A stretch of DNA of 64,000 nucleotides from Patescibacteria group bacterium (lineage in GTDB: Bacteria; Patescibacteriota; UBA1384; XYA2-FULL-43-10; 1-14-0-10-43-13): assembly GCA_041674765.1 (NCBI GenBank), contig JBAYVE010000005.1, positions 1,645 through 65,644 on the forward strand. Direction: 5' to 3'. The notes under the pieces are model-generated. The model worked only from the letters and a program-made list of their open reading frames with translations, was not told the DNA's origin and searched no databases. The stretch's first letter is position 1; every line of letters starts with the position of its first letter. The position numbers were made by a program, and so were the translations under genes. Below are positions 31,662-59,120 of this stretch, piece by piece.

Positions 31662-32600
31662 ATGATTGACTTATCAAACAAAACTGAACTGACTTCATAT
31701 CTTAAAGAAAAGGGTCTCTGGGCAAAGCATGGCCTCGGGCAAAATTTTTTGGTTGATAGAGATGCGCTTGATAAAATTATCGATACAGCTTTTGATACAC
31801 CCCACCCAACCTCCCCTCACGAAGGGGAGGAGTCGTTGATTATTGAAGTTGGGCCGGGGGTAGGGACGATGACGGAGGAGCTTGTCAAACATGCGAAGAA
31901 GGTGATTGCGGTTGAATTGGATGAGAAATTAAAGCAATTGTTAAATGGCTATATTGCTGAATTGCTTAAGAACAACAATATAACAATAGAACAATATAAC
32001 AATTTTGAATTAATCAATGCCGATGTACTCAAGGTCAATATTCCCGAATTAGTCGGTGATCAGAAGTACAAGGTTGTGGCCAATATTCCGTATTATATTA
32101 CCTCCAAAATTTTGCAATTATTCTTGACGCTTGAAAATAAGCCGGAGAGTATTACTTTGCTCGTGCAAAAAGAGGTAGCAGAGCGGATTTGTGCTAAACC
32201 TGGTGAGATGTCGGTGCTGGCAGTTTCCGTGCAAGTTTACGGCGAGCCAAGAATTGCCGGCATTGTGAAGAAGGAATCATTTTTCCCCTCGCCAAAAGTG
32301 GACTCGGCAATATTGCATATCGCAATTTCCAATTTTCAATTTCCAATTTTCAATCAATTTCTAAATTACAATTTCCAAACGAAAGAAGCGTTTGAGAAGG
32401 CTTTTTTCCGCCTTGTTCATATCGGTTTTGCGGCAAGAAGAAAAACGCTCGCTAATAACCTCTCAAACGGCTACCATATAGACAAGAAGACAGCAGAGGA
32501 TATAATTAGATCAATGGGATTTTCTGTAAGCATTCGTGCGCAAGAATTATCAGTAGACGACTGGAAGAAGCTGGCAAAAGTCGTATTAGGTATTACGTAG
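31662..32600 (+). CDS. rsmA: 16S rRNA (adenine1518/1519-N6)-dimethyltransferase
   Basis: GQNFLVD....KI.......EVGPG.G.MT..L; NIPYYITS. Two in-frame element insertions: hairpin element at ~31797-31840 (DTPHPTSPHEGEESL) and TTTCCAA repeats at ~32325-32385. Confidence 0.85.
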   Translation: MIDLSNKTELTSYLKEKGLWAKHGLGQNFLVDRDALDKIIDTAFDTPHPTSPHEGEESLIIEVGPGVGTMTEELVKHAKKVIAVELDEKLKQLLNGYIAELLKNNNITIEQYNNFELINADVLKVNIPELVGDQKYKVVANIPYYITSKILQLFLTLENKPESITLLVQKEVAERICAKPGEMSVLAVSVQVYGEPRIAGIVKKESFFPSPKVDSAILHIAISNFQFPIFNQFLNYNFQTKEAFEKAFFRLVHIGFAARRKTLANNLSNGYHIDKKTAEDIIRSMGFSVSIRAQELSVDDWKKLAKVVLGIT

Positions 32601-32776
32601 TACGTATTAAGTATTAAGTATTAAGTGGTAGGTGTTATGTGGAGGAAGGCGCTGGGGAATGTACTAAGGGGTAAATATTAAGTATTATGCAAGAGAACAA
32701 AAAAATCGAATCTGAATATTTATTTGTCATTCCAGACTGTGGCTCGATCCGCCAACTGGCGGACTGGAATCCAGCC

Positions 32777-33160
32777 ATGCCCTTCGTAGCTGTCAAGCGA
32801 AGTGGGAGAGTGAAGTCATACTATATTTACATTATGGCTAGTCGAAGGAAAGGCACATTGTATATCGGTGTGACGAATGATTTGATCAGAAGAATCTGGC
32901 AGCACAAGAATAAAGTTATTGATGGATTTACGAAAGATTATAATGTCTCCTTATTGGTTTATTATGAAGAAACAGCAGATATTAAATCAGCAATCAAAAG
33001 AGAAAAGCAATTGAAGTCTTGGAATCGACAATGGAAGATAGAATTGATTGAGAAAACAAACCCTGATTGGCATGATTTGTACAGAGAGATAGCTGGATCC
33101 TCGGGTATTACTCTCGAGAGCACCGCCGATCCCGAGGATGACAGGGGAGTGATTCCATAA
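32777..33160 (+). CDS. Small GIY-YIG nuclease-domain protein (YhbQ-like)
   Basis: SYYIYIMASRRKGTLYIGVTNDLIRRIWQHK...LVYYEE......AIKREKQLKSWNR.WK. The 5' region 32700-32776 is a palindromic repeat element (the same element, inverted, is at 2707-2760). Confidence 0.65.
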   Translation: MPFVAVKRSGRVKSYYIYIMASRRKGTLYIGVTNDLIRRIWQHKNKVIDGFTKDYNVSLLVYYEETADIKSAIKREKQLKSWNRQWKIELIEKTNPDWHDLYREIAGSSGITLESTADPEDDRGVIP

Positions 33161-33248
33161 CATGTAATATATACCCTTTTATACACTGGTTTCGTGCCTA
33201 ATACATACTACCTAATACATAATACATAATACTAACAAGTGAGGGAAT

Positions 33249-34775
33249 ATGCCTGAAGTTTTAAATCCGAAGGAGCCTTTAGCCGACAAAATCGTCGGAG
33301 TTATTCAGCGAGCTGATGCTGATTTTACGATGCCAGAGCCTTTGAAACTTTTTACGATCTCTGAGTTTCGACATGAGCTTGGTATTCCGCTAGTTCTGGC
33401 TCGTAAATTGATCGTTTGGGGCTTGGTCAAGGTAGTTCGGACGACCGATGGCACAATTCAGATTACTGAGGGTGAACTTTTGGAAACGAAGGAGTTCTTG
33501 AAGAGCCCCTGGCAGAGAACTAAATTGTTTGTCCGCGCCCTGGGCCCCGGCTTAATTACTGGCGCTTCAGACGATGATCCCGGGGGAATTGCCACTTATT
33601 CTGCTGTTGGTGCGGCTTTTGGCTACAAGATGCTCTGGATGGCACTCTGGCTTTTGCCATTGATGACCGCCGTGCAGGAGGCCTGTGCCCGTATCGGCAT
33701 TGTGACCAACAAGGGGCTTTCCGGAGTACTAAAGAAGCACTATGCCAAATGGGTCGTCTTTCTGGTTGTTTTGTTCCTAATTGTTGCCAATGTCGTTAAT
33801 ATCGGTGCCGATCTAGGGGCAATGGCTGCGTCCCTAAAACTGGTTTGGGATGTCAATTTTACCGCTGCCGCCTTTGGCTTTGCGCTTCTTATTTTGTTGA
33901 TTGAGGTGGCAATCCCATATCGATATTATGCCTCGGTTCTGAAATGGCTGACAATCTCAATTTTTGCTTATGTAGTGACAGGGTTCATTATCAGGCCTGA
34001 GTGGCTATCTGTTTTTAAGGAAGCGCTGGTGCCGGACTTCATCCTTTCCAAGGACTATATTTTTGCAATAGTCGCTGTTTTCGGCACAACGATCACGCCT
34101 TACCTTTTCTTCTGGCAGGCTTCAGAGGAGGTCGAGGAGGGCAAAATGACGCCAAAGAGCGATGAGGCGGGCAAGCCGATTGCTTACAGATTGACTGACC
34201 GGATCGCTCATATGAGGACGGATGTACGCACGGGCATGGCTTTAGCAAACTTAGTTTTCTTCTTCATCATTCTAACTACGGCCAAGGTGTTGCATCAAAA
34301 CGGTATTACCTCGATCGAAACCGCCGAGCAGGCAGCAGAGGCGCTCCGTCCCTTTGCCGGCGATCAAGCCTTTCTTTTATTTGCCCTGGGAATAATTGGC
34401 ACAGGTCTTCTGGCAGTACCAATCCTAGCCGGTTCCGGAGCTTACGCCCTTGCAGAATTGATGGGATGGCGAGAAGGTCTTGGCAAGAAATTCTCAGAGG
34501 CCAAAGCGTTTTATATGGTGATTGCGATTTCGATTTTGGTAGGCTTGGGCTTAAATTTCGTCGGCATCAGTCCGATCACGGCGCTTTATTACTCCGCCTT
34601 CCTAAACGGAGTTATTGCAGTACCGCTCCTCTTTGTTATTATGATAGTAGGCGGTGATAAGAAGATTATGGGGCGGGAGACACACCCCAATTGGGTCAAA
34701 TTCTTCGGCTGGGCGGCCTTTATCTTCTCAGCAATCGCCGTGCTTTCGATAATTATTATGCAGTTTATAAAATAA
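33249..34775 (+). CDS. mntH: NRAMP/MntH-family divalent metal transporter with ~85-aa N-terminal extra domain
   Basis: LGPGLITGASDDDPGGIATYSAVGAAFGYKMLWMALWLLPLMTAVQEACARIGIVTNKGL is an NRAMP consensus. There are 11-12 TM segments. The N-terminal soluble extension has an unclear fold. Confidence 0.7.
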   Translation: MPEVLNPKEPLADKIVGVIQRADADFTMPEPLKLFTISEFRHELGIPLVLARKLIVWGLVKVVRTTDGTIQITEGELLETKEFLKSPWQRTKLFVRALGPGLITGASDDDPGGIATYSAVGAAFGYKMLWMALWLLPLMTAVQEACARIGIVTNKGLSGVLKKHYAKWVVFLVVLFLIVANVVNIGADLGAMAASLKLVWDVNFTAAAFGFALLILLIEVAIPYRYYASVLKWLTISIFAYVVTGFIIRPEWLSVFKEALVPDFILSKDYIFAIVAVFGTTITPYLFFWQASEEVEEGKMTPKSDEAGKPIAYRLTDRIAHMRTDVRTGMALANLVFFFIILTTAKVLHQNGITSIETAEQAAEALRPFAGDQAFLLFALGIIGTGLLAVPILAGSGAYALAELMGWREGLGKKFSEAKAFYMVIAISILVGLGLNFVGISPITALYYSAFLNGVIAVPLLFVIMIVGGDKKIMGRETHPNWVKFFGWAAFIFSAIAVLSIIIMQFIK

Positions 34776-34779
34776 AATT

Positions 34780-38306: not shown

Positions 38307-38472
38307 TGCCTAATTGTATTATTAATCACAATAATTTGTCAAGAATATTTGACACATTGTTAATACAAAAACAGTGTTAATTATTGGTTTATTAAGTACA
38401 GTATTTATAAATTTAAACAAAAATAGGTAGTCAATTTTGTAATTAATCTTGATTAAAACTGTTATAACCCCT

Positions 38473-38521
38473 TGACAAATAAAGCAAGCTGTTGTATAAT
38501 GGCCTGTCACGATGAGAAAGG
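38473..38521 (+). promoter_or_regulatory. Second copy of consensus promoter (TTGACA 38473-38478, 17 bp, TATAAT 38496-38501) + conserved leader motif GGCCTGTCACGATGAGAAAG, heading ~1 kb repeat-rich region with no ORF
   Basis: Direct sequence comparison with 371-419. Confidence 0.55.
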
Positions 38522-38555
38522 CGAACAGTGCCAGGAGCACTAGGCCGCGACTCAA

Positions 38556-39846: not shown

Positions 39847-40044
39847 ATGAAACACATAGGGTGTTTTATTATGATTGCAGTGTTTTTTACAGCTTTCATA
39901 TGGCGAGCGGTGGAAATGCTGATGGTGAAGAAAGTCTGGCCAGGGATGCCAGGCTTTTGGAGTATGATCATCGCTACCACGATCACAAGTGTGGTCATGG
40001 GTAGCGTCTGCTGGGCAGCAATGAAGCTGTCTAGCCGCAAATAA
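39847..40044 (+). CDS. Small membrane protein (2 TM)
   Basis: Hydrophobic ORF with RBS AAGGAG 8 nt upstream. Confidence 0.35.
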   Translation: MKHIGCFIMIAVFFTAFIWRAVEMLMVKKVWPGMPGFWSMIIATTITSVVMGSVCWAAMKLSSRK

Positions 40045-40314
40045 TATCTGCCAGAGCGCCTTTGCCTGCGAGAGCAGGACTTGTATAAGGATGTACATGA
40101 GGTGCTCTGGACCAATCTTTTGAGAAATGAAGGATTTATTCTTCGAACGTAGTGAGGAGTTCTCGACTTCTAGAACATCGCTCGAGCAATAAGTTATTTT
40201 TCCTCAAAATTTTTTTAGAGGAGTCTATGTGTCTCGCCTCAGGCGAGCCGAAAGCCTTCAAGGACATAGACTAGCCGGTCTTCGATAAATGAAGTGAAGA
40301 TCGGTGGAGGGAAT

Positions 40315-41361
40315 GCGATGACACGCATTTTCTTGAGTTCCAACCCCGAAAATCTGGCGGCTGAGTTGGCCGCTTTCCGCCTGACCGCAACGGTTGAGGC
40401 AGAATTCGGCGACACGGTCGTCGAAGGGTCAATTCTGACTCTCGCGCATCACGGCGCCCGGTCGGCGAACTCGGCTCCCTGCCTCGCCAGCAATGGTGTG
40501 GCCGGTGACCCGGTGCAGGTCGAGGCGATTGGCGTGAGCCACATCGACCTCGATTCCCTGGGCGGCGTAATGGCCGTCCTCGGGTCCAAGCCGGAATCGG
40601 TCGGCTTCTGGGCCTTGTCGGCCTTCGTCGATACGAATGGCCCCCACAAGTTGGCCCAGGCCGGCGCCGAGGCAGCGGATGTCGCCCGGCTCTACGCCTT
40701 TTGGGCGTATAGCCAGGCGCACCGGCTCATGCCGGATCGTTCCGGCGCCGTCACGGATGTGACCGAGCAGGTCACCGAGGCCATGGAGGCAATCGCGGCC
40801 ATCCTGGCCGACGACCCCGCCATGCTGGCCGCCGGCAATGATTTCCGCTCGGCGGAGGATTCGCTGAACAAGCGATCCTTTGTCGAGATGGTGGGAGGCG
40901 TTGGCGTCCGCGTTGCGGACGTTTTCGTCAGCCACCTCTATGGCTCGCCGGAAGGCGAGCTGGCGAAGGCCGTCGTGGCCTTTAACACCGTCACGGGTAC
41001 CGTGACGGTTTCCCTTGCTGATCCCATCCCCGGGGTCAGCGCCTGCACGATTGTGCAGGGAATCTGGGGGACGGAAGCCGGCGGGCATGCCGGCATCGCG
41101 GGTAGTCCCCGCGGTCGCCGCATGACTTTGGCTGATCTTGCCCGGGCGGCGGAAGCCGTCCGGGAGGTCATCGCCTCCACTTCGGTGGAGTGCGAGGACT
41201 GCGGGCAGGTGGTCTCCGACCTCCTGCCCGGCCAAATCCCCGACGGTTGGGGCACCGTCGGGTGCTACGAGGATTGCCCCAAGCACGAGGAGGCGTATTG
41301 CCCCTCGTGCTTGCCCGCCGCTCAGGCGGCGGGGCGTCATCGCTGTGGGCATGACCACTAG
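40315..41361 (+). CDS. Hypothetical protein (62% GC island) with C-terminal Cys/His-rich metal-binding tail; weak DHH-phosphoesterase-like motifs
   Basis: RBS GGAGGGA. Contains GVSHIDLDSLGG (similar to DHH motif I H..D.D..G) and GGHAGIAGS (similar to DHH-family GGGH motif), but no DHH triad. C-terminal CEDCGQ...CYEDCPKHEEAYCPSC...HRCGHDH. The antisense 333-aa ORF is judged a GC-shadow. Confidence 0.45.
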   Translation, partial: AMTRIFLSSNPENLAAELAAFRLTATVEAEFGDTVVEGSILTLAHHGARSANSAPCLASNGVAGDPVQVEAIGVSHIDLDSLGGVMAVLGSKPESVGFWALSAFVDTNGPHKLAQAGAEAADVARLYAFWAYSQAHRLMPDRSGAVTDVTEQVTEAMEAIAAILADDPAMLAAGNDFRSAEDSLNKRSFVEMVGGVGVRVADVFVSHLYGSPEGELAKAVVAFNTVTGTVTVSLADPIPGVSACTIVQGIWGTEAGGHAGIAGSPRGRRMTLADLARAAEAVREVIASTSVECEDCGQVVSDLLPGQIPDGWGTVGCYEDCPKHEEAYCPSCLPAAQAAGRHRCGHDH

Positions 41362-41560
41362 CGATGACGGAAGGCTTTGCTTGTTGAGCCAATCCAACAA
41401 GCTGCTTCGCTTGAGGCAGGAAGAAATCAAGCAACAACCCGCTCCGACCTTTTAGTCGGAGCACCAGAGCCTGCCCTAGGACAAGAAGTTCTAGGGCACT
41501 CCTTATTCAATTTAATTTCGATTGAATTGAATAAAAGAGAATGGCTTCAAAGAAGTTTTG

Positions 41561-41647
41561 CAAAAATTACTGTCTTATAAATTGATCTATCAGATTAGTT
41601 ATAAGGCAATAATGCCTTGATTGTGAGTCGAAAGGAGAAAGACCATG
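41561..41647 (+). promoter_or_regulatory. AT-rich regulatory element inside GC-rich island: AAATTACTGTCTTATAAATTGATCTA...TTATAAGGCAATAATGCCTT...GAAAGGAGAAA-ATG; second copy at 42719-42805
   Basis: The two ~85-nt copies are about 85% identical. Each contains the palindrome AAGGCAATAATGCCTT and an RBS, and ends at the ATG of a small ORF. Confidence 0.7.
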
Positions 41648-41830
41648 GCTTACAATTGCAAAAAGACGGACCATGATGGTCCGAAGCGTGGCGCTGGCGC
41701 CTTTCGGGGTCGCCGCGCCGACGCAAAAGTGGCGGCTTCGCGCCGCCGCCGCCAGGATGGCCGCAATGAAGCGGCCAAAGGACTGGCAGAACAGGGGAAC
41801 GCTCAGGAGGGCGTTCCCAAACCATTTTGA
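41645..41830 (+). CDS. Small basic protein (61 aa, Arg/Ala-rich)
   Basis: ORF immediately following the repeated regulatory element + RBS AAAGGAG. Confidence 0.35.
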   Translation: MAYNCKKTDHDGPKRGAGAFRGRRADAKVAASRRRRQDGRNEAAKGLAEQGNAQEGVPKPF

Positions 41831-41916
41831 TTAAGATTTAGAGTTTTTTGATTTAAAATTCCAATCTTCATCAAATCCCATTATGGCCATTGAGTCTGAG
41901 GGAATGGAGGTGAAGT

Positions 41917-42204
41917 ATGTTGAAACATTTTTTACGGTTTTTAAACCGTATAGCTAAAGCCGAGGTCGTAAAGGCCGAAGCGGAAGCTATGGCGGCCAAA
42001 GTGGCCGCCGACGAAGCCGCAAGGAAGGCGGCACGAGAAAATCACGAAGCGCAGGAAGCGCTTTTGGTCGTAACTGCCCTGAAGGATTCGGGGCGGTTGA
42101 TCTCATCCATCACAGAATTCACTGGTGGGTGTGATCGGGGTGCGTGGCACCCCACGAAGATTTGGAGTCTTGATGGGCAACAGATTGCCCACTGGACTCT
42201 TTGA
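41917..42204 (+). CDS. Hypothetical protein; 5' leader (41860-41916) shares a conserved motif with leader of 46971 gene
   Basis: Leader ...CTTCATCAAA.C.CATTGAG.CTGAG.G.A.GGAGGTGAAGTATG is shared with 46913-46970. Confidence 0.4.
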   Translation: MLKHFLRFLNRIAKAEVVKAEAEAMAAKVAADEAARKAARENHEAQEALLVVTALKDSGRLISSITEFTGGCDRGAWHPTKIWSLDGQQIAHWTL

Positions 42205-42331
42205 AAAGGATTGGCCGGACGACGCGGCCATAAGCTACTCAAATGATTGAGTAGCACAGTCGAGCCATGCAGCCTCGCGGTATCGGGAATAAGCTCATAG
42301 AGCCCCAACCGCAAAAAGGAGGTGTAGTGCA

Positions 42332-42529
42332 GTGGCAAAAGACGCTCAGGCGGCCATGAGGCCGTCTGTCATCCCCATTCTCATCGAGAAGGGGATGAGC
42401 CGCGAGGAGTTGATGCTTCTCGTAGATCGTCTCGTTGGCGAGGTGGAAACCTACGCTAATGGGCCGTTCTCGGCAGAAGCACTCCGTGGCGAAATCACGG
42501 CAGTGCAGAATACCGTTGTAAAACGGTAG
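42332..42529 (+). CDS. Hypothetical small protein
   Basis: ORF with RBS AAGGAGG (42317-42323). Confidence 0.35.
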   Translation: MAKDAQAAMRPSVIPILIEKGMSREELMLLVDRLVGEVETYANGPFSAEALRGEITAVQNTVVKR

Positions 42530-42802
42530 ACTGCTGGGTACAAAACTTTGCTCCGACGGGTTAGATCGGGGCGGCGCCAGTCAAGGTGTCTGGGCGGGGA
42601 CTTTCCTATAAGTTGTCTTCATGGCAGCGATGAAATGGAAAGCGAAACCACAAAAATCCGCAACTATGCGACAAATAGTGAAATATTCCCGAGGAGCCCC
42701 AGCTGGGGCTCCTCAAATCCAAAATTACTGTCTTATAAATTGATCTAATTTGATCAGTAATAAGGCAATAATGCCTTCTGGCGCATATGAAAGGAGAAAA
42801 TT

Positions 42803-42937
42803 ATGATCGTATGCGTATATTGTAAAACGCCCCCGGATGGGGCAGCCGTGTGCCCGTGTTGCGGCCACACGATGGACTCCTCCACCATGGAATGGGTGGA
42901 GGAGCAGGATAACTCTCCCAAGGATGGGGAGAAATAA
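42803..42937 (+). CDS. 44-aa zinc-ribbon protein (CVYC...CPCC), not in ORF track (<60 aa)
   Basis: Translation MIVCVYCKTPPDGAAVCPCCGHTMDSSTMEWVEEQDNSPKDGEK, read manually. Preceded by the second copy of the regulatory element + RBS AAAGGAG. Confidence 0.4.
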   Translation: MIVCVYCKTPPDGAAVCPCCGHTMDSSTMEWVEEQDNSPKDGEK

Positions 42938-43197
42938 ACAAACCGATTTATCCGTGAGAGGCATCGGGCATGACGTCCTTTGCCTCTCAAATTTTTCTCT
43001 TTATCAAACTGCTCTCGAACTTCGAGAGCAGTTTCAGTATAGAGTTTTCTTGGGCCACCCTGCCCATTTGCCCTGACGCGCCGTCCGTAGATTTACGCAG
43101 AGGATGGACTTGTTTGGCTTGAAACACTAGCCGGACTGGAGGGAAGTCGATTAAATTCGGCCAGGCAGGGGTGGGTGATAATCCCCGGTCTGAGGAG

Positions 43198-45150
43198 ATG
43201 AAGATGAATAAAAGTCTTCCGATCGCCGACTATCGCGAGCAGATTCTGCAAGCGATAGAGGTAAACTCGGCGGTGGTGATCACTGCCGAAACGGGAGCTG
43301 GGAAATCGACCCAGGTACCCCAATTCCTTATGGAAGCGGGATATCGAGTGGTCGTGACCCAGCCACGGCGTCTTGCCGCAAGGACAGTGGCCGAGCGTGT
43401 AGCCGAAGAAGTCGGTTGCCAGCTTGGTGAAGAAGTCGGCTTTCGAACTGGCTTCGAGCGTAAGGACTCGGCTCAAACCAAAGTGCTTTTTTGCACGGAT
43501 GGTTTGCAGCTCGTCCGCGAGTTGACCGGCAACGGTGCCACCGACGTTCTTGTTATTGATGAAGTCCATGAGTGGAACATCAACATCGAGACGTTGGTCG
43601 CCTGGACGCGCAAGCGTTTGGGTGAAGGTGTCGACTTCAAGGTTGTGCTGATGAGTGCGACCTTGGATGCCGAGAGGCTTGCCGCGTTCTTTGGCGAGAC
43701 AGTGCCGGTGATCTCGGTGCCAGGTCGACTTTTTCCGGTCGAAACAAAAAGTGGCAGGACGAGCGAACTGGTGCCGACCGTGCGTGGACTGGTAGCTGAG
43801 GGCAGAAATGTCCTTATTTTCCAGCCTGGCAAGCGGGAGATCGAGGCGACGGTTCGGGAATTAACCGGGCTGAACGTTGAAGTCCTCCCCCTGCATGGGG
43901 ATATGGAATCGGCCGATCAGCGCCGAGCGTTTCGTCACTATGACCGTCCCAAAGTGGTCGTGGCGACGAATGTGGCCCAGACCTCCATTACCATCGATGA
44001 TATCGATGCGGTGGTGGATAGTGGGGTCGAGCGGCGGGTTGAGTTGGTTGACGGGATTGAAGGTCTTTACCTCAAGCCCATTAGCCAAGCAGATTGCAAG
44101 CAGCGCGCCGGTCGAGCCGGACGTTGCAAAGAGGGCATTTATGTTCTCTGCTCTGATTCGTCACTGGAAAGCCGTCCGGCATATCCCAAGGCGGAGATCG
44201 AGCGAAGTCGTCTCGACCAGTTGGTACTGCGTTTGGCGGTGACTGGCTTTGATGCTACAGCATTAGAGTTTTTTCATCAGCCGGAGCGGGCTGTGCTGGA
44301 AGATGCGAAGCGTGCCTTGCATGCATTGGGGGCGATGTCGGAGGACGGCCAGGTCACGAAGATCGGGCGTCAGATGGCAAAACTGCCGATCAGCGTGCAG
44401 TATGCGCGCATGGTGATCGAAGCGGCTCGTCTCGGCGAAGAAGAGGACGTAACGACGATTGTCGCACTCCTCGAAGCCGGCGGATTGCGTGCCAGCAAGG
44501 ATGATCGCTGGCGGAAATTGACGGCGGAGATACAGAGTGATCTGCTTGCCGAGCTGGACCTCTTTGAGGCCTGTCAAGGCTTCTCTGGCGAGGATTTCCG
44601 TGAAAACGGCGTCTTTGCCAAGGCCTATTTTCGGGCAAAGGAGATTCGGGCGAAGCTCCGTCAGGCGCTTGTCAGTGCGGGGATCAGTTTTGACCGGTCG
44701 GAGAAACACGACCGGCAAGCGATCATGAAGGCCTGCGTTGCTGGGATGGTGGACCACCTTTATCACACAGACGGGTGGAGTGATTACCATAACGGTAGTG
44801 GGGGCACGCGCCAAAAAGCGCGCGAAAGTGTTGTCTCCGGTTCGCCGGAGTGGGTCGTGGGCTTGCCCAAAGATATTGGGTTTAAGGATCGCCGCGGTTA
44901 TGACCGCGTCCTGAACCTGGTGGCGATGGTGACGGCCGTCGACCCAATGTGGCTTGCCGAGGTGGCGCCGCAGCTAGTGCGGCTGGATACGGGACTTTCC
45001 CCTCACTTCGACTCCGAGAAGGACCTGGTTGTTTCGACGACACAGACATTCTTCAAAGAGTCGAAGATCGGGGAGGAAATTATCCCTGATCCGGCGCACG
45101 CAGAGGCGGCGTCGGTGTTTGCAAACTGGCTCGCCAGCCAGTGCCTTTAA
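43198..45150 (+). CDS. DEAH-box (HrpA/HrpB/DHX-like) ATP-dependent RNA/DNA helicase
   Basis: Motif I ETGAGKSTQVPQFL, Ia VVVTQPRRLAARTVAERVA, DEVH (VLVIDEVHE), SAT (LMSATL), motif V VVVATNVAQTSITIDDIDAVVDSG, motif VI QRAGRAGRCKEG. Start set at MKMNKS after RBS GAGGAG. Confidence 0.8.
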   Translation: MKMNKSLPIADYREQILQAIEVNSAVVITAETGAGKSTQVPQFLMEAGYRVVVTQPRRLAARTVAERVAEEVGCQLGEEVGFRTGFERKDSAQTKVLFCTDGLQLVRELTGNGATDVLVIDEVHEWNINIETLVAWTRKRLGEGVDFKVVLMSATLDAERLAAFFGETVPVISVPGRLFPVETKSGRTSELVPTVRGLVAEGRNVLIFQPGKREIEATVRELTGLNVEVLPLHGDMESADQRRAFRHYDRPKVVVATNVAQTSITIDDIDAVVDSGVERRVELVDGIEGLYLKPISQADCKQRAGRAGRCKEGIYVLCSDSSLESRPAYPKAEIERSRLDQLVLRLAVTGFDATALEFFHQPERAVLEDAKRALHALGAMSEDGQVTKIGRQMAKLPISVQYARMVIEAARLGEEEDVTTIVALLEAGGLRASKDDRWRKLTAEIQSDLLAELDLFEACQGFSGEDFRENGVFAKAYFRAKEIRAKLRQALVSAGISFDRSEKHDRQAIMKACVAGMVDHLYHTDGWSDYHNGSGGTRQKARESVVSGSPEWVVGLPKDIGFKDRRGYDRVLNLVAMVTAVDPMWLAEVAPQLVRLDTGLSPHFDSEKDLVVSTTQTFFKESKIGEEIIPDPAHAEAASVFANWLASQCL

Positions 45151-45161
45151 AGGAGGGCAAA

Positions 45162-46676
45162 ATGAGCGAAAAACTCCTAGAGGTGCTGGCGGCAAACAAA
45201 GCGCGACAAGATCGCGCCCGCCAGCTTAATATTCGGGCCGGGGCAGAAATGTTTCCCGTGCTCGACCAGGCGCAAATGAGAGCCTGGATGACCGATAAGG
45301 CAGCGGGAGCGCGCCGGATGGCAGAGATTGCCGATCCTGAAGCTCTACGCTTGCCTGCCCTCGACGAGGTTTTGGTTCAAACGGTGATTCGCGAGAACCC
45401 CGACGAGATCGAGCTTCTCGGGGCGATGCGAACAGTGGATTACAAGGATAGTTACGGCCGTTCCAGGCCGAATCCGCGGGTCCGCATTGACTTCAGGGGA
45501 GAGAATGCCAACGACTGGCAAAGGCTCCCCGACGAGATCCGGTTGCCGGGTGGCCGTGAGGTTTGCCTGTATTCCGCCATTGACGGATATGGGTATTACA
45601 TCGAGGCTGTGCCCTCTGAGTTTAAGGCAAAAGTGCGTGATTGCCTAAACCAGGCTCAATGGGACAACTGGCCTCAGGCCGATCGACCGGAGATCCCAGT
45701 TCTCGACCCGGCCGACGACGAGGCGGCTATCCCTGAAATCACCACTGTCCAGTACGGGCAGTGCGTGGTGACGGGCGAGCCGCTCATCGCCTTTGGTACT
45801 TTGGCTCCGAAGAGCCGATACTACACGACGGACCCATATTTCGTGGTCCAGTGGTACCGGTCGATTGAGGAGGCCGAAGTGTCTCGGGTAAAGGCCGTCG
45901 AAACGCTCGAGAAAGAGCTAGCGGCTGTCCGGGAGTGCCGGGAACTGGAGATCGCCAAGCAGGAAGCTGAAGCGGTCAAATTAATATTCGAGTCACTCTA
46001 CCGCGAAGTAGATAATACCCGCGAGTGGCTTGAGTTGCCGGATGAATTGAGGAATCGTCTTCGTAGCCGGCATTGTAGCTATGTACCATCCTCATTGCTG
46101 GAAATCCGCCAATGGCAAGCAGAGACAGAGGCGTTAATCGCTGAGGTAGGGCCAGCTTTGGTGGAAATCAAGCGTCAGCAGGCGGAAGCCGAGCGTCAGG
46201 CACGCGAAGAGCAGGAAGCTGCTGTTCGTGCCGAAGAAGCTCGGCGGGTTCGTGAGGAGGAAGCCCATCGTGGGCAGATGGAAGAGATTCTGACTGCCAT
46301 GCGGGGTGTCCTCGGGTATGTGCCTGTAATCCGTTGCGACTTTGAAGAAGTCGCCGGCAAGAATGGTACATACTTGGAAAATTGGGGCCGCCTCACAGGT
46401 ATTAACTGTGATGGCGAGTCCGACTCGTACTGTGACGGCCGTAATGCCGTGGTGGTGCAGTCTGTTGAAACCACCGGCGGTGTGCTGGAGTTCCTGGCCT
46501 ACTGGAAGTATGGCAATTGGAACTTGGCCGCTCGCTGGCGAGAACTTTCCGAAGCCGCGGCACACGCCGTTGAGATTGGGGAGGTTCGGGCGGAGGATCT
46601 GGAAGATCCGAAGCCAGTAGAAGATCTGGGGGCGTCGCTTGCGGCGCTCCAGGCGAAGTTCAAAGGATTGAACTAA
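45162..46676 (+). CDS. Hypothetical protein with central coiled-coil (ERQAREEQEAAVRAEEARRVREEEAHR)
   Basis: RBS AGGAGGG. The start is 12 nt after the helicase stop. No recognised domain. Confidence 0.45.
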   Translation: MSEKLLEVLAANKARQDRARQLNIRAGAEMFPVLDQAQMRAWMTDKAAGARRMAEIADPEALRLPALDEVLVQTVIRENPDEIELLGAMRTVDYKDSYGRSRPNPRVRIDFRGENANDWQRLPDEIRLPGGREVCLYSAIDGYGYYIEAVPSEFKAKVRDCLNQAQWDNWPQADRPEIPVLDPADDEAAIPEITTVQYGQCVVTGEPLIAFGTLAPKSRYYTTDPYFVVQWYRSIEEAEVSRVKAVETLEKELAAVRECRELEIAKQEAEAVKLIFESLYREVDNTREWLELPDELRNRLRSRHCSYVPSSLLEIRQWQAETEALIAEVGPALVEIKRQQAEAERQAREEQEAAVRAEEARRVREEEAHRGQMEEILTAMRGVLGYVPVIRCDFEEVAGKNGTYLENWGRLTGINCDGESDSYCDGRNAVVVQSVETTGGVLEFLAYWKYGNWNLAARWRELSEAAAHAVEIGEVRAEDLEDPKPVEDLGASLAALQAKFKGLN

Positions 46677-46970
46677 TCGCCAATTTCCGTCCATCACCCT
46701 TCCTTCGGGAGCGGTGATGGACACTTCAACCTGCCCGTGATGGCTATTCTACATGTTTGTCTATTAGATGATCATGCAGGATACTCCTGAGCCATTGCCG
46801 GCAGATTAGAAGAATTTGGAAACAGTGCGTCTTAAACCTTTCTATCTTTTGATGCAGATTTAGAGTGATTAACTTTATAACTTTCAGCTTTATGAACTTT
46901 ATAAACTAATTTTCCAACCTTCATCAAAGCGCATTGAGCCCAATTGAGGCTGAGCGGGAGGAGGTGAAGT

Positions 46971-47762
46971 ATGGCGAAAGATGGGGATGTGAGATATTCC
47001 GTTTCCCCAAGTTGTTATACCGGCTGTTATTGTATTCGCCGGTGTTTGTACAACGCCAAGGTCAGGAGACCAAGGTGGGAGAGAAGTTGTGACGAAGATG
47101 TCTACGGCATTGAAAGTGCCATAGAGGTTTTTATAAGTAAACTTCTTTCAGAAACTCCTGGAACTTTCCAAGTTGAAGTTTCCAAGGAGATCCTGGAACA
47201 TGTTCCGGGCTTGATCTCAGCAGAGGGGGAGATTGACTTGGATGTCTGCCGCTCCTTTCTCCAAAAATTGGATGAAGAAAAAAAGCGAGCTGAGCAGGAG
47301 GAAGCAAGGCTTGCTGAAATCGAGCGCCGAGAAATTGCGGAGATGATTGCTGCGAGCAACGATCAGTTCCGCAACCGGTTCTCGGAGTTGGTGGGAAAAA
47401 CCGTCTCCGGGCTGGAACTTTCCGGTGACCAAACAGGCTTATGCCTTCGATTCACGGATGGATCGGAAGTCTGTTGGGAGGCTGCTCCGGGCTGCTGGTC
47501 CTGCGCTGAGGCTTGGTGGAACGACGGCATCGGCGTGGAAAATTTGTTCGGTACTCCCGTCACGGAGGTCTTACAGTTGGAGCTGCCGAATACTTCACAG
47601 CAGCGAGTCAGTGCTGTGGCTTATGGGGTTCAATTCCGAACCAGCAAAGGGGTGACGACCTTTGCTTTTCGGGGCAATCACGAGCATTACGGAGCTTCCA
47701 TTGAGATCATTGAGAAGAGCGAACTCGATGGATGGTCTCCAGTACAGGATGATTGGGGCTAG
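46971..47762 (+). CDS. Hypothetical Cys-rich N-terminus protein
   Basis: Shares its 5' leader with 41917. Followed by a rho-independent terminator at 47881-47915 (AATCCCC...GGGGATTTTTTGTT). Confidence 0.4.
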   Translation: MAKDGDVRYSVSPSCYTGCYCIRRCLYNAKVRRPRWERSCDEDVYGIESAIEVFISKLLSETPGTFQVEVSKEILEHVPGLISAEGEIDLDVCRSFLQKLDEEKKRAEQEEARLAEIERREIAEMIAASNDQFRNRFSELVGKTVSGLELSGDQTGLCLRFTDGSEVCWEAAPGCWSCAEAWWNDGIGVENLFGTPVTEVLQLELPNTSQQRVSAVAYGVQFRTSKGVTTFAFRGNHEHYGASIEIIEKSELDGWSPVQDDWG

Positions 47763-48589: not shown

Positions 48590-48886
48590 ATTTTTATTCC
48601 CGACAAGGAGTATTTCAGTGCGGTTTTTTGTTATAGAAAATAAGGGGGGATTATGATAGGATTGACGGAAGTATTAAGGGCTTAGTATTAAGTATTAAGT
48701 ATAGAGTATAGAGTATTAAGTTAGCAGGTGGATCATACCCCACCTAGCCTCCCCTTTCTAAGGGGAGGAATAACTGGACGACATCAAATATTAGGTATTA
48801 GGTTGGGCAGAGCAATGTTTCGGGCAGGAGATTTCTCCGCCTACGCCTTCGGCGGAGAGTCAAAATGACAACAGGATAATAACCAA

Positions 48887-49834: not shown

Positions 49835-50197
49835 ATGAAAATTTTGAACTTTACTGATCTATTGGTTTGGAAAGAGGGACATTCCCTAGTCCTGGCAATC
49901 TACGAAGCTACTAAGAGTTTTCCTCGTGAAGAAATGTTTGGGCTAACAAGTCAAATCCGTCGAGCTGTCATTTCTATCACCTCTAATATTGCTGAGGGTT
50001 TTGGGCGAAAATCAAAGAAAGAAAAAGTTAATTTTTACAATATATCTTCAGGATCTCTCACTGAAGTTCAAAATCAATTAATGATTGCAAAAGATCTGGG
50101 ATATATCTCATGTTCTCAATTTGACCTTATGCTTAATAAGAGTGTTGGCGTTTACAAGATGTTAAATGGACTGATAAGATCCATTTCGGTCGACTAG
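49835..50197 (+). CDS. Four-helix-bundle protein (TIGR02436 / so-called 23S rRNA-intervening-sequence protein, Avd-like)
   Basis: ...LVWKEGHSLVLAIYEATKSFPREEMFGLTSQIRRAVISITSNIAEGFGR......F..IS.GSL.EV.NQL..A matches this family. Flanked by TAGTAGCTA-word repeats (49736-49815) and an inverted copy (50200-50232). Confidence 0.7.
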   Translation: MKILNFTDLLVWKEGHSLVLAIYEATKSFPREEMFGLTSQIRRAVISITSNIAEGFGRKSKKEKVNFYNISSGSLTEVQNQLMIAKDLGYISCSQFDLMLNKSVGVYKMLNGLIRSISVD

Positions 50198-50250: not shown

Positions 50251-51804
50251 ATGAGCAAATACTATATCACTACACCGATCTACTATATTAATGACGTGCC
50301 GCATATCGGGCATGCTTATACTACAATTGCCGCTGATGTCTTGGCCCGGTATTACCGCAAGAAGGGCGACAATGTTTTTTTTCTGACTGGCACTGATGAG
50401 CATGGCGCCAAAATTGCGGAAGCGGCAGAGAAAGCCGGCAAAGAGCCGAAAGCTTTTGTCGATGCATTGGTGCCCAAATTTGAGGAAGCCTGGAAGAATT
50501 TGAACATTTCATATGATCAATTTTTTCGTACCACTAACCCAAAGCATGAGAAATTGGTGCAGGAATTTGTCCAGAAATTGAAGGACAGAGGCTTTGTCGA
50601 GAAAAGATCGTATGAAGGGCTTTACTGCGTTGGCTGCGAGAAATTCTTGAAGGAATCAGAGCTTGTAGAAGGGCTTTGTCCTGATCACAAAAAAGCACCG
50701 GTGAAGCAGAAAGAGGAGAACTTTTTTTTCAAACTATCAGAATTTGCCGAACCGTTATTAAACAAAATCAAATCAAAAGAATTTGAAATAGGCCCGGAAG
50801 CTCGACAAAATGAAGTTCTTGGCAAGATCGAGGTCGGCCTTGAAGACGTTAGTATTTCACGTGCGGCCGTCGAATGGGGAGTTCCTTTTCCAGGCGATGA
50901 GTCACAGACGATTTACGTTTGGATTGATGCGCTTCTAAATTATTACACGGCGACTGAAATATACAGTAAAAAGGAATTGGATCCCCGGGTCATGGCTGCC
51001 GCCTGCTCCGAGGATGACAATAAAGAGGCTCGTGCCTGCTCCGAGGATGACAATAATTCCAATACACCCCCTCTAGCTCCCCCTCGAAAAGGGGGAGAAG
51101 TTCCTGAATGGCCGGCGGATTTGCATCTGATGGCCAAGGATATTCTCTGGTTCCATGCTGTTATTTGGCCGGCAATGCTTTTGGCACTTGATTTGCCATT
51201 GCCGAAGAAGGTTTTTGCTCACGGCTTTTTTACCATCGGCGGTCAGAAGATGAGTAAGACGATCGGTAATGTGCTCGATCCAAACCAGATGGTAGAAAAA
51301 TTCGGCGCCGATGCCGTCCGTTATGCACTTCTTCGGGAATTTCCATTTGGCGAGGATGGAGATATTTCAGAGGAAAAGATAGCTAGCCAGTACAATTCTT
51401 TGGCCAACAATATCGGCAATTTGTTCCAGAGGGTTTTGAGCATGATAGATAGGTATAACGTATTAGGTAGTACGTATTACGCAGAGAACAGGGAAAGCCT
51501 AATACATAATACAAAATACCAAATACCGGTTGATAAGGAACTTATCAATCTTGATTTTATGGGTGCGCTAAAAAAGATTGACGATTATGCGATGGAATTA
51601 AATAAATATATCGCCGAGAAGGCTCCCTGGACGCTGGCAAAAGAAGGCAAGCAGGAAGAATTGAGTGAGGTTTTAGTTACGGCATACGAAAGATTATTCC
51701 CAATCGCCGAAGGATTAGAGTCGTTTATGCCGGATACCGCCAAGAAAATGAAGGATCAATTAAAGTCGCTAAATCCAGAGCCATTATTTCCAAAACAATA
51801 CTAA
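50251..51804 (+). CDS. metG: Methionyl-tRNA synthetase
   Basis: YYITTPIYYINDVPHIGHAYTT (HIGH); Zn knuckle CVGCEKF...CPDH; KMSKTIGN. ~130-nt in-frame composite insertion at ~50970-51100 (KKELDPRVMAAACSEDDNKEARACSEDDNNSNTPPLAPPRKGGEVPEW) and microsatellite insertion at ~51450-51510. Confidence 0.9.
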   Translation: MSKYYITTPIYYINDVPHIGHAYTTIAADVLARYYRKKGDNVFFLTGTDEHGAKIAEAAEKAGKEPKAFVDALVPKFEEAWKNLNISYDQFFRTTNPKHEKLVQEFVQKLKDRGFVEKRSYEGLYCVGCEKFLKESELVEGLCPDHKKAPVKQKEENFFFKLSEFAEPLLNKIKSKEFEIGPEARQNEVLGKIEVGLEDVSISRAAVEWGVPFPGDESQTIYVWIDALLNYYTATEIYSKKELDPRVMAAACSEDDNKEARACSEDDNNSNTPPLAPPRKGGEVPEWPADLHLMAKDILWFHAVIWPAMLLALDLPLPKKVFAHGFFTIGGQKMSKTIGNVLDPNQMVEKFGADAVRYALLREFPFGEDGDISEEKIASQYNSLANNIGNLFQRVLSMIDRYNVLGSTYYAENRESLIHNTKYQIPVDKELINLDFMGALKKIDDYAMELNKYIAEKAPWTLAKEGKQEELSEVLVTAYERLFPIAEGLESFMPDTAKKMKDQLKSLNPEPLFPKQY

Positions 51805-51822
51805 TTTTTTTAAAGGAGGGAT

Positions 51823-52152: not shown

Positions 52153-52153
52153 C

Positions 52154-52993: not shown

Positions 52994-53077
52994 CTCAAAG
53001 CAAAAAGCTAAAAGCGCAAAGTAAATGCAATTTTCTTTCGGCTTTTGACTTTAAGCTTTAAACTTTTGGCTAATGTA

Positions 53078-53866: not shown

Positions 53867-53984
53867 TTTTGGGATCTTAAGTTTCTAATTCAATAAAATG
53901 ATTATTCTTGGGACCCCTCGATGCTTCGAGGTCGGAGAAGTTCTCCACCCGCAAGAACACGGAGTCGAACAATAATTTTTTCTG

Positions 53985-54542: not shown

Positions 54543-54632
54543 ATTCCTCCTAGAGCAATTATTTGCTTTTCTATTATAACACCTTCTAGTCCCAAAAAAG
54601 CAATAAGGCTCCTTTTTGTATTGACAAAACTA

Positions 54633-55358: not shown

Positions 55359-55359
55359 C

Positions 55360-56901: not shown

Positions 56902-57039
56902 CGCGTCTGGACCAACCGAGGCCCTACTCCAGGAGTCATTCTGGAGCGGGGCTTTTTTTATTATCTTACAGTACTTGTAATGTAAGACTTTTTTTGTTAA
57001 TATCAGTACTAACGATGGCGAATGGGTTTGCAGATTAAT

Positions 57040-57085
57040 AAACCACCCCTAGCCCCTCCTTGAAAAGGAGGGGAAGTAAAGGAAA
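57040..57085 (+). repeat. Hairpin element AAACCACCCCTAGCCCCTCCTTGAAAAGGAGGGGAAG (family CCCCTC-GAAAAG-GGGGAG) supplying SD-like sequence to downstream gene
   Basis: Same family as 51063-51100, 58340-58385, 58663-58712, 31797-31840, 48738-48775 and 120-160 (inverted). Confidence 0.75.
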
Positions 57086-57297
57086 TGATGAAAAAGATTA
57101 CTACCAACAAATTGCAAGATGGACTTTCAAAGGTTATCAAGGAAGTTGAGACAGGAGAAGTTTATGAAGTCAGCCGCTATTCCAAGGCGGTGGCTTATCT
57201 TGTTTCCAAAGAGCAATTTGAAAAACTGATTTCCGGTAGCGAGTGCAAAGAGTGTATGAATGATTTGCGGAAAATTGCAGAAAAACTCAAAAGGTAA
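57085..57297 (+). CDS. Phd/YefM-like antitoxin-fold protein
   Basis: ITTNKLQDGLSKVIKEVETGEVYEVSRYSKAVAYLVSKEQFEKL aligns with YefM/Phd (IS.SEAR.NLS......E.....I.TR.G...VL.S.EEY..L). Confidence 0.5.
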   Translation: MMKKITTNKLQDGLSKVIKEVETGEVYEVSRYSKAVAYLVSKEQFEKLISGSECKECMNDLRKIAEKLKR

Positions 57298-57318
57298 AAC
57301 GAAAAAGGAAAAACTACA

Positions 57319-57669
57319 ATGGAAAACGAAAAAGTTTACGATTTGAGAAAACGCTCATTTAATTTTTCTTTAGATATTATTGAATTCTTGAAATCTCTTC
57401 CAAATAATTATATTGATCAAGTCCTTTGTAAACAGCTTTTGCGTTGTGCAACAAGTATTGGGGCGAACATAATCGAAGCACAGGCAGCTCCAAGTAAAAA
57501 AGATTTCGCTAACTTTTATAACATTTCACTCAAATCAGCGAACGAGACAAAATATTGGCTGATGCTTATTGAAGAAAGTTCCATTGCTGATACGAGTCTA
57601 TTTTTAGTAGAAGCAGAGGAATTAGCCAAGATTTTAGCAAAAAGCTTATTAACAATGAGGGGAAAATAG
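57319..57669 (+). CDS. Four-helix-bundle protein (TIGR02436 family, paralog of 49835..50197)
   Basis: ...QLLRCATSIGANIIEAQAAPSKKDFANFYNISLKSANETKYWLMLI matches the same family. Starts 21 nt after the Phd-like gene. Confidence 0.7.
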   Translation: MENEKVYDLRKRSFNFSLDIIEFLKSLPNNYIDQVLCKQLLRCATSIGANIIEAQAAPSKKDFANFYNISLKSANETKYWLMLIEESSIADTSLFLVEAEELAKILAKSLLTMRGK

Positions 57670-57719
57670 TTTTTAATTATTACTTGTGGTTCTTCGTTAT
57701 TATTTTTTAGTTTTGACTT

Positions 57720-59120
57720 ATGAATAGGATTTATTTAGACAATGCAGCGACAACTAAGCCGGCGCCGGAAGTAATTGAGTTTATGGCGAAGGCCCAAGAA
57801 AAATATTGGGGCAATCCCTCCTCAATCCACACTTTTGGCCAGGAGGCTCGGAGAGTGGTTGACGATGCGAGAAGGCTCGTTAGCTTTTTCATTGGCTGCG
57901 AGCAGGAAGAGGTTATTTTTACATCAGGCGGAAGTGAGAGCGACAACCTGGCGATACGAGGCATCATTAGTTCTGTCATTCCAGCCCCCGATCAGGTCGA
58001 GGGTAAAACTCCGGCTGGAATCCAGACAAATAAGGAATTGGATTCCGGATCTCAAGCTACAGTCCGGAATGACACTATTTTAAAGCCGCATGTAATCACT
58101 TCCGCAGTCGAACATCATGCGGTGCTACATACAGTGCAGGAACTTGAAAAAGAGGGGAAGATCGAGGCTACTTATATCAAACCAGATGGCGAAGGATTGA
58201 TTACCCCAGAAATGGTGAAAGCTGCGATTCGAGACAACACAATATTGGTTTCCATCATTTATGTTAATAACGAAACTGGTGTTGTAACCCCTATTCGCGA
58301 GATTGGATTGATGCTGGAAGTTGAGAACAACAAGAGGTTAACAATAAACCCCACCCAACCTCCCCTTGAAAAGGGGCGGAGTAAAAGGATCTATTTCCAT
58401 ACCGATGCGGTGCAGGCGGCGGAATTCTTCGAGATTTCACCTGAATATTTGAAGGTAGATTTACTTTCTCTGACTGCTCATAAATTTCATGGACCTAGAG
58501 GAATCGGTGTTCTATATGTCAAGAAAGGGACTCCAGTCAAAGCGCAAATTACCGGTGGCGATCATGAATTTCGACTGCGAGCCGGGACGGAAAATACGCC
58601 GGCCATTGCAGGCCTCGCTAAAGCAGTTGATCTGATTTTGAAAGAACGAGATAATTCTATTAATACACCCCCTCTAAATCCCCCTCGAAAAGGGGGAGAA
58701 TATAAGGAGAACGGGGCGTTGCCAGAATTGATTATTTCAAATGAATGTTTGCGGCTATCAAATTTGCGGGACAAACTGATTCAAGGCATTGTTGAGCAAA
58801 TTCCTGATGCTTATTTAAATGGCAGTGAAATCAGACGAAGCCCTAATATTGTAAATATTAGTTTCTTCAATGCTGAAGGCGAGGCAATCGTCTTGAACCT
58901 AGATTTCATGGGTATTGCAGTTAGCTCTGGCTCGGCTTGCACCTCGAGATCTCTGGACCCCAGTCACGTTTTGTCAGCGATGGGCATTCCGCCGGAAAAG
59001 GCCCACGGCTCGATCCGTTTTTCGCTCAGCCGTGAGACAACAGAGGAAGAAATTGACAAAGTGCTGGAAGTGTTACCGGGAATCATCGATAAACTGCGAT
59101 TGATGTCGCCGTTTAACTAA
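57720..59120 (+). CDS. iscS: Cysteine desulfurase (IscS/NifS family)
   Basis: IYLDNAATT; SGGSESDNLA; LSLTAHKFHGPRGIG; active-site SSGSACTS. Three in-frame element insertions (~57985-58078, 58340-58385, 58663-58740). Confidence 0.85.
   Translation: MNRIYLDNAATTKPAPEVIEFMAKAQEKYWGNPSSIHTFGQEARRVVDDARRLVSFFIGCEQEEVIFTSGGSESDNLAIRGIISSVIPAPDQVEGKTPAGIQTNKELDSGSQATVRNDTILKPHVITSAVEHHAVLHTVQELEKEGKIEATYIKPDGEGLITPEMVKAAIRDNTILVSIIYVNNETGVVTPIREIGLMLEVENNKRLTINPTQPPLEKGRSKRIYFHTDAVQAAEFFEISPEYLKVDLLSLTAHKFHGPRGIGVLYVKKGTPVKAQITGGDHEFRLRAGTENTPAIAGLAKAVDLILKERDNSINTPPLNPPRKGGEYKENGALPELIISNECLRLSNLRDKLIQGIVEQIPDAYLNGSEIRRSPNIVNISFFNAEGEAIVLNLDFMGIAVSSGSACTSRSLDPSHVLSAMGIPPEKAHGSIRFSLSRETTEEEIDKVLEVLPGIIDKLRLMSPFN

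Follow-up and report, generated by a model that had tools for sequence, protein, structure and literature searches.

Short repeats with the layout of intrastrand triplex motifs within and between genes of a Patescibacteria genome

What are the short palindromic elements that recur in a Patescibacteria genome, both between genes and inside open reading frames (ORFs) for essential enzymes? We addressed this question for an element of 35–40 nt found in a 64-kb stretch of contig JBAYVE010000005.1 (assembly GCA_041674765.1; the whole stretch is hereafter the window). The original prediction, made from the sequence alone, had described a family of hairpins at seven places. A profile built from the seven copies recovered seven strong matches in the window (E = 3e-11 to 3e-9), and the weaker matches were reverse readings of the same hairpins or noise. 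A degenerate 35-nt IUPAC pattern covering all copies matched seven times when 0.00 matches were expected from 100 dinucleotide-preserving shuffles, and a triplex-aware scan of the window yielded five matches versus none in 20 shuffles. The profile and the pattern confirmed the predicted copies (Table 1): four lie in frame (one in MetRS, two in IscS, and one in KsgA) and three between genes, the latter each oriented like the neighboring gene. We consider it probable that these elements belong to the intrastrand triplex-motif repeats rich in G/C (BoxC, PIT, or TM_ECO), which would spread at the DNA level and be filtered by selection.

This assignment is based primarily on the architecture of the element. 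The predicted hairpin is real in the sense that its stem is conserved, but the description was incomplete: the C-rich box located 5' of the stem covaries with it as a third strand would. Across a linker of constant length (3 nt), this box repeats the first stem arm in mirror order, as in CCACCCC-TAA-CCCCTCC..GGAGGGG, CCCCCTC-TAA-CTCCCCC..GGGGGAG, CCCCACC-TAA-CCTCCCC..GGGGAGG, and CCCCCCC-CAA-CCCCCCC. In an unbiased collection of hairpins with C/T arms from all fetched DNA, a perfect mirror at exactly 3 nt was found for 44.5% of strand-hairpins, which corresponds to about 89% of hairpins since each was counted on both strands; at other linker lengths, the perfect mirror reached at most 5.6%. 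Mirror symmetry is not explicable by Watson-Crick copying or by a two-fold symmetric protein; it constitutes the signature of a third strand.

We then tallied the bases of the box against the stem across 126 unique boxed elements. Opposite a C-G pair of the stem, the box presented a C in 754 of 769 cases (98%), whereas opposite a T-A pair it presented A (63 cases), T (41), or C (9). As a result, 92% of the informative triplets at stem A-T pairs are canonical for the purine motif versus 36% for the pyrimidine motif. Perfect agreement between box and arm was observed for 14 of the 26 informative types, when 10,000 permutations gave a mean of 1.4 and a maximum of 6, and the covarying types come from many phyla. 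A pyrimidine-motif triplex (C+·G-C) on the C-rich strand or the mRNA was rejected as a candidate since most boxes present A, not T, opposite stem A-T pairs. In an alignment of 103 sequences, whose members were picked for being in register, 98.9% of the stem cells were paired with compensatory changes at five of nine pairs, a result reached by none of 500 shuffles (slid controls: 63–83%). Columns 7/19/31 of this alignment read C/C/G 49 times, and 54 times they presented a non-standard box-arm cell opposite a stem U-A pair, which we read as A/T/A in light of the tallies over the boxed elements. The register of the third strand holds only with the 3-nt linker, and the two added A-T triplets explain the conserved AAA, ACA, or ATA that precedes the box. 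Read on the G-rich strand, the layout consists of a 9-nt Y-stem, a 3-nt loop, a 9-nt R-stem, a second 3-nt loop (TTA, CTA, or TTG), and a 9-nt G-rich third strand, for instance CCCCTCCTT-TTC-AAGGAGGGG-CTA-GGGGTGGTT; an example of an oligonucleotide of the G-rich strand is TCCCCTCCTTTTCAAGGAGGGGCTAGGGGTGGTTT.

The class II intrastrand triplex motif is defined by blocks in the order 5'-Y, R, reverse-Hoogsteen-3', with stems of 6–15 nt, at most one mismatch, and loops of 1–6 nt; its third strand runs antiparallel to the purine strand and may form only the triplets G·G-C, A·A-T, and T·A-T (Holder et al. 2015, PMC4666352). Our elements display the three blocks of this ITxF class II definition in this order, with 9-nt blocks and 3-nt loops, and the tallies give G opposite G-C in 98% and T or A opposite A-T in 92% of cases over the 126 elements. 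The seven copies of the window present seven to nine allowed purine-motif triplets out of nine (9/9 in two copies, 8/9 in four, and 7/9 in one); the 7/9 copy falls just outside the one-mismatch rule at a stem length of 9 but inside it for the 7-nt core.

A published element with this architecture is found in E. coli, where the type A element TM_ECO reads CCCTCTCCC-TTGA-GGGAGAGGG-TTA-GGGTGAGGG and where BoxC/PIT was described (Hoyne et al. 2000, as cited in PMC4666352). The two kinds of element share the segment order on the G-rich strand, the TTA second loop, and the triplet rules, the E. coli element including one T·A-T and one A·A-T triplet. Both are about 35 nt long, multi-copy, sometimes arranged as inverted doublets, and patchy among relatives; TM_ECO forms inverted doublets of types A and B and is associated with local instability among strains (PMC4666352). 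BoxC-like stems (CCCTCTC/GAGAGGG) were also found in some of the fetched loci (e.g., L015 and L125). In contrast, the sequences themselves differ, and the window elements, carried by a Patescibacteria genome, have a 7-nt G/C core extended by two A-T triplets instead of a 9-nt stem. TM_ECO is present in 23 copies in the 4.6 Mb of E. coli K-12, always intergenic and without strand bias (PMC4666352), whereas the window presents about seven copies per 64 kb, of which four lie inside ORFs, in frame in essential genes, and all seven are in sense orientation.

How widely are such elements distributed? A pattern scan of one genome per species revealed at least 113 loci in Cyanobacteria, Bacteroidota, Abditibacteriota, Armatimonadota, Thioploca/Thiomargarita, Nitrospirota, and several Proteobacteria, among others, and eight Patescibacteria genomes are among the matches listed. 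G/C-rich triplex motifs have been reported by the hundreds in cyanobacteria (PMC4666352). Of 192 copies in the fetched loci, among the matches listed, 38% are located in open frames of 150 codons or more versus 74% of random positions, which indicates that the element is depleted from genes but far from excluded. Examples elsewhere include the NAD-dependent DNA ligase of Microcoleus, a fructosamine-kinase-like gene, an alpha/beta hydrolase, a WD40 protein, TrmD, and, in another Patescibacteria genome, KsgA at a different site. Taken together, these cases cover all three phases and both orientations. In the Microcoleus ligase, just upstream of the KxDG adenylation motif, an array with a changing number of elements, in frame and in both orientations, spans 255, 324, 357, 369, or 384 nt depending on the species (all multiples of 3) between almost identical flanks. 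Some genomes also present inverted doublets spaced by about 8 nt and short tandem clusters, reminiscent of the A/B doublets of TM_ECO and of REPINs. Scanning viral contigs with the element pattern gave no match and hence no hint of a phage vector, and a metagenome scan for the exact subfamily shared by metG and iscS copy 2 (95% identity) gave none either.

The original prediction considered its precedent, the Rickettsia palindromic elements, as undescribed for this kind of genome. Our literature search found no description of such elements in Patescibacteria, nor of their DNA words or peptides (PPLNKGG etc.), but the kind of element is widespread.

The coding copies are lineage-specific, frame-preserving insertions in loops of essential enzymes. 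When aligned to solved structures of the PDB, IscS residues of about 201–221 and 314–342 and MetRS residues 237–285 have no counterpart, and the KsgA element corresponds to a gap of nine residues. Orthologues tell the same story. Among 41 close relatives of MetRS, the nearest (P0122 at 71% identity and P0124-P0128) are empty at the site and run uninterrupted through YKKDDF-WPANLHL, while a patchy minority carries other elements of the same kind at this loop (e.g., TPNPSSERRG..IPPLAPPDSGGG and TLTPPLTPPRRGGG) and some carry quite different repeats; overall, various elements occupy the site in 31 of 120 relatives. At the KsgA site, most orthologues lack an insert, and 12 of 120 relatives have one; for eight of these 12, the nearest neighbor is empty at up to 88% identity over core columns. 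At the DNA level, one KsgA pair differs by a clean 36-nt indel (AAACCA/CCCCTTACCCCTCCTTCAAAAGGAGGGGAAGTTAAT/GGGGAT versus AAGCCA/GGCGAT, slashes marking the junctions), and iscS copy 2 is likewise a 36-nt (12-codon) indel relative to the closest relative, L114. The intergenic copy upstream of phd/yefM is missing from the syntenic spacer in L114 and L115. Finally, IscS has three insertion sites that behave as hot spots, with different repeats in different lineages.

We built an AlphaFold model of IscS from the orthologue alignment (mean predicted local distance difference test score, pLDDT, of 79; predicted template modeling score, pTM, of 0.83). Residues 92–119 and 316–331 have pLDDT below 50 and no predicted secondary structure, and residues 211–220, which correspond to iscS copy 1, have pLDDT of about 50 and again no secondary structure; these low-confidence stretches coincide exactly with the inserts. 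Since relatives are empty, the indels are clean, and the modeled IscS loops are unstructured, these segments do not look like ordinary ancestral sequence, and the lineage-specific insertion proposed in the original prediction is upheld for MetRS, IscS, and KsgA. These comparisons are across species: none of the relatives in a collection of 5.8 billion proteins exceeds ~70% protein identity, and the nearest relatives of IscS are Berkelbacteria-like at 68% identity or less. No target-site duplications were found at the two clean 36-nt indels; one left junction has a 6-nt overlap (AARCCA), the sole feature noted at these junctions.

The peptides predicted for the coding copies matched our translations, and all three host ORFs are unbroken. 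The accompanying claim that every coding copy is read in one frame proved wrong: base 1 of the element falls at codon position 1 in metG, ksgA, and iscS copy 2, but at codon position 3 in iscS copy 1, which for this reason reads NPTQPPLEKGRS rather than TPPLxPPxKGGE. In the phase of this copy, the 3-nt linker forms one codon, so that the TAA or TAG linker of most copies would be a stop; CAA is found there instead. All three phases are used by relatives, and both orientations by cyanobacteria. Inside genes, only frame-preserving and stop-free copies were found.

An alternative explanation, which we regard as unlikely, is a plain hairpin mobile element of the Rickettsia palindromic element (RPE), miniature inverted-repeat transposable element (MITE), or REP type, whose hairpin would be its sole structure, whose box would be a conserved recognition sequence for a transposase and whose copies would transpose into genes. 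The hairpin is indeed stable and conserved, presence/absence polymorphism and REPIN-like inverted doublets occur, and residence in frame is RPE-like. However, recognition by a protein gives no reason for a box that matches the stem in mirror image at each position, as observed for at least 14 types; the 36-nt indels showed neither terminal inverted repeats nor target duplications, and no transposase was seen in the window. RPEs, attributed to Ogata et al. in 2000, are reportedly ~100–150 bp long, probably unrelated in sequence to the element here, restricted to Rickettsia, and devoid of a described third-strand box. The parallel drawn with them by the original prediction is apt for behavior inside genes, as both are small palindromic repeats found between genes and in frame in conserved protein genes, where they leave ORFs undisrupted and occupy permissive sites, probably at the protein surface, in obligately dependent hosts with reduced genomes. 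It fails for kind: the window element, a probable triplex-motif repeat of the BoxC/PIT/TM type, is 35–40 nt long and cross-phylum, and is set apart from RPEs by size and host.

REPs and REPINs are mobilized by RAYT, an IS200/IS605-like Y1 transposase (PMC3733652, PMC3116915), and bear a GTAG or CGTC tetranucleotide head beside the palindrome (PMC3733652). The resemblance lies in a 20–40-nt palindrome with a conserved 5' head, present as singletons and inverted doublets, with high copy numbers possible; the differences are that the head of the window element is a mirror copy of the stem and that REPs are extragenic. GTAG was found within 10 nt of none of the copies, and CGTC or its complement near one copy only. 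No RAYT gene turned up among the ORFs scanned, which cover 64–77 kb of the genome. The small dispersed repeats (SDRs) of cyanobacteria, attributed to Elhai et al. in 2008, are said to be hairpin repeats of ~21–27 nt, often in heptamer tandem arrays and also inside genes; the window resembles them in combining heptamer arrays with small hairpin repeats. SDRs are not known to have a triplex architecture.

A role at the RNA level is improbable. Under this explanation, a hairpin in the sense transcript, or a pyrimidine-motif RNA triplex, would affect mRNA stability, translation initiation (by donating or masking a Shine-Dalgarno sequence), or ribosome pausing. The C-rich strand is the sense strand in all seven window copies, two of which sit 11 and 18 nt upstream of start codons, and the predicted RNA folds reach −9 to −16 kcal/mol with z scores down to −3.3. 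Yet GC skew is positive throughout the window, so that the directions of transcription and replication are confounded there, and loci of other Patescibacteria are mostly, but not always, in sense orientation and include inverted doublets. Both orientations are likewise found in other genomes and inside cyanobacterial genes, and the 36% of informative triplets that are canonical on the C-rich strand fit an RNA triplex poorly. Purine-motif triplexes do not form in RNA, and PIT elements showed neither promoter nor terminator activity in E. coli (PMC4666352). In Rfam 15, only two tRNAs of the window reached the gathering score, and permissive thresholds around the copy upstream of phd/yefM returned nothing better than E = 0.65. 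This copy had been proposed to donate a Shine-Dalgarno sequence to the gene; such donation is possible but not supported, and we find it doubtful, as its GGAGGGG, which ends 11 nt before the ATG, is sequestered by pairing in the stem, and the sister copy on the minus strand lies 18 nt from its ATG.

It is even harder to credit that, in place of a triplex, the G-rich strand forms a G-quadruplex or the C-rich one an i-motif. The G-rich strand does contain at least four G-runs (e.g., GGAGGGGTTAGGGGTGG), and an all-G subfamily fits G3N1G3N3G3N1G3, but neither structure requires mirror-placed interruptions or a covarying Watson-Crick partner arm, and several subfamilies retain G-runs of only 2 nt. 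Least plausible is a selected Pro/Gly-rich protein module (TPPLxPPxKGGE) with DNA similarity as its by-product: the same type of peptide does recur at the same KsgA and MetRS loops in several lineages, but intergenic positions hold three of the seven window copies and the majority of copies elsewhere, reading in three phases and both orientations yields unrelated peptides, conservation follows base-pairing rules, the inserts are unstructured and of low confidence in the IscS model, and other, unrelated repeats occupy the same loops.

Several observations weigh against the identification of the elements as triplex-motif repeats. Three of the seven window copies have a stem mismatch, and the core stems of the window are 7 nt long, reaching 9 nt only via the A-T triplets. 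The strict TM_ECO consensus, CCCTCNCCC-N3-6-GGGNGAGGG-N3-GGGNGAGGG, had no match in the window. We infer purine-motif triplex formation from the covariation of sequences only and, since subfamilies are clonal, the independent covariation events number closer to ~14 types than to hundreds. For E. coli, oligonucleotides of TM_ECO form a stable triplex in vitro by circular dichroism and nuclear magnetic resonance, but no triplex was detected in double-stranded DNA or by in vivo dimethyl sulfate footprinting (PMC4666352). Lastly, we found no mobilizing enzyme, target-site duplication, or defined insertion mechanism.

If the elements are nonetheless triplex repeats, their spread could be pictured as follows. 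When the G-rich strand becomes single-stranded during replication, repair, or transcription, it would fold into the hairpin, and the 3' tail of the strand would lie antiparallel along the purine arm, held by reverse-Hoogsteen contacts (G·G-C, T·A-T, and A·A-T). The folded structure, or an enzyme recognizing it, may promote local insertion, deletion, and duplication. Elements are gained and lost at given sites among relatives; insertion or deletion would be frequent and proceed at the DNA level, perhaps through a trans-acting enzyme that recognizes the structure, template switching, or conversion between copies. Selection would then remove coding copies that shift the frame, add a stop, or hit a structured region, and, because genes are dense in a Patescibacteria genome, many of the surviving copies would be coding. 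In the sense orientation, the C-rich strand encodes linkers of the Pro-Pro..Gly-Gly type, which loops would tolerate. A bolder version, in which the element is a structure-defined mobile DNA whose triplex forms and is recognized in vivo by machinery shared or transferred across phyla and repeatedly targets the same loops, is a speculation to which we give rather low credence.

Other short repeats crowd the window and in part lie within genes; they include tandem arrays of heptamers and several families of inverted repeats (Table 1). A second, unrelated inverted-repeat family (GTCATTCC...GGAATGAC, read as VIPA..AGIQ..RND) lies in frame in iscS, where it forms a segment of 38 amino acids that has no equivalent in solved IscS or in many relatives and whose pLDDT is below 50. 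A third family, GCTCAGGATGACAA, is duplicated in tandem (ACSEDDNKEAR / ACSEDDNNS) immediately before the 5' side of the metG element, which makes the MetRS insert a composite of at least two kinds of repeat. One of the heptamer arrays (AGCTAAA, GTATTAA, AATACAT, TTTCCAA) is inside ksgA and reads NFQFPIFNQFLNYNFQ. An 86-nt direct repeat (97% identity, with an internal inverted repeat) flanks the mnmA ORF. Genes for 23S-rRNA-IVP or bAvd-like four-helix bundles are found directly upstream of metG and iscS, with a third copy just past the end of the window; the one before iscS is missing from the syntenic locus of L114. In a UvrD/PcrA-type helicase, an intein (Pfam Intein_splicing) separates the N-terminal from the C-terminal helicase domain. 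Finally, an island of 55% G+C in this 41–45% G+C genome encodes a DEAD/DEAH-box helicase with an HA2 domain and several long ORFs that match no Pfam family; some of these ORFs overlap on opposite strands, and rRNA was not detected in the island.

Table 1. Coordinates of element copies, host genes, and other features of the window, with identifiers of loci from other genomes.
Feature	Position or locus	Strand	Profile match	Description
ksgA copy	31797..31831	+	31795-31833	ACA-CCCCACC-CAA-CCTCCCCTC-ACG-AAGGGGAGG-A; read from codon position 1 as TPHPTSPHEGEE; 8/9 purine-motif triplets allowed
Intergenic copy	48735..48769	+	48734-48771	Between DUF1664-like gene and rsmI; directly after GTATTAA heptamer array; 9/9 purine-motif triplets allowed
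metG copy	51064..51098	+	51061-51099	Read from codon position 1 as TPPLAPPRKGGE
Intergenic copy	57040..57074	+	57037-57075	11 nt upstream of ATG of phd/yefM antitoxin gene (57085-57297), sense; 9/9 purine-motif triplets allowed
iscS copy 1	58346..58380	+	58343-58382	Read from codon position 3 as NPTQPPLEKGRS; one stem mismatch (GGGGCGG); linker CAA
iscS copy 2	58665..58699	+	58662-58701	Read from codon position 1 as TPPLNPPRKGGE
Intergenic copy	120..154	-	118-157	One stem mismatch; 18 nt upstream of ATG (position 106) of helix-turn-helix regulator-like gene (- strand), sense
ksgA/rsmA	31662..32600	+		Pfam RrnaAD 3.4e-42
metG	50251..51804	+		Pfam tRNA-synt_1g 3.5e-102
iscS/nifS-type cysteine desulfurase	57720..59120	+		Pfam Aminotran_5 7.7e-64
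Second inverted-repeat family, iscS copy	57972-58085			In frame, amino acids 85-122
Second inverted-repeat family, other copies	about 200-250, 28996-29042, 63189-63235, 63843-63889			Intergenic
Third repeat family, metG copy	51001-51058			Tandem duplication
Third repeat family, other copies	20252, 31625, 48974, 60431
Heptamer tandem arrays	13375-13515, 32583-32647, 48670-48735, 32320-32379, others
86-nt direct repeat	61126-61211, 62444-62529			Flanks mnmA ORF (61263-62438)
86-nt direct repeat, partial copy	53939-53977
23S-rRNA-IVP/bAvd-like genes	49835-50197, 57319-57669			Upstream of metG and iscS, respectively
UvrD/PcrA-type helicase	20356-23658			With intein
G+C-rich island	40000-47000			55% G+C
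DEAD/DEAH-box helicase	43171-45150			With HA2 domain; in the island
Microcoleus ligA loci	L004, L009, L027, L038, L051, L052, L063, L067, L068, L070			Other genomes
Inverted doublet/cluster loci	L006, L016, L021, L062, L064, L094, L099, L102			Metagenome-assembled genome 341R_metabinner_26
Inverted doublet/cluster loci	L129, L131, L138			Other genomes

Triplex repeats have been known since BoxC, and their relevance in vivo is unsettled. What is new here is the host phylum, the frequent residence in frame in essential enzymes at recurrent hot spots, and the three-way covariation across phyla. The E. coli copies are nearly identical and therefore carry no evolutionary signal, whereas the divergent subfamilies of Patescibacteria, Cyanobacteria, Bacteroidota, and others keep the register, which offers comparative evidence of a constraint on triplex geometry. 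As judged from sequences, this covariation is indirect evidence that the geometry may matter in vivo. The copies in MetRS, IscS, KsgA, and the DNA ligase of Microcoleus indicate that such repeats can remodel essential proteins. This is relevant to the annotation, alignment, and phylogenomics of proteins of the candidate phyla radiation, whose variable lengths are partly derived from repeats. If the bolder version were true, a structure-defined mobile element would be a major driver of protein-length evolution in the reduced genomes of Patescibacteria.

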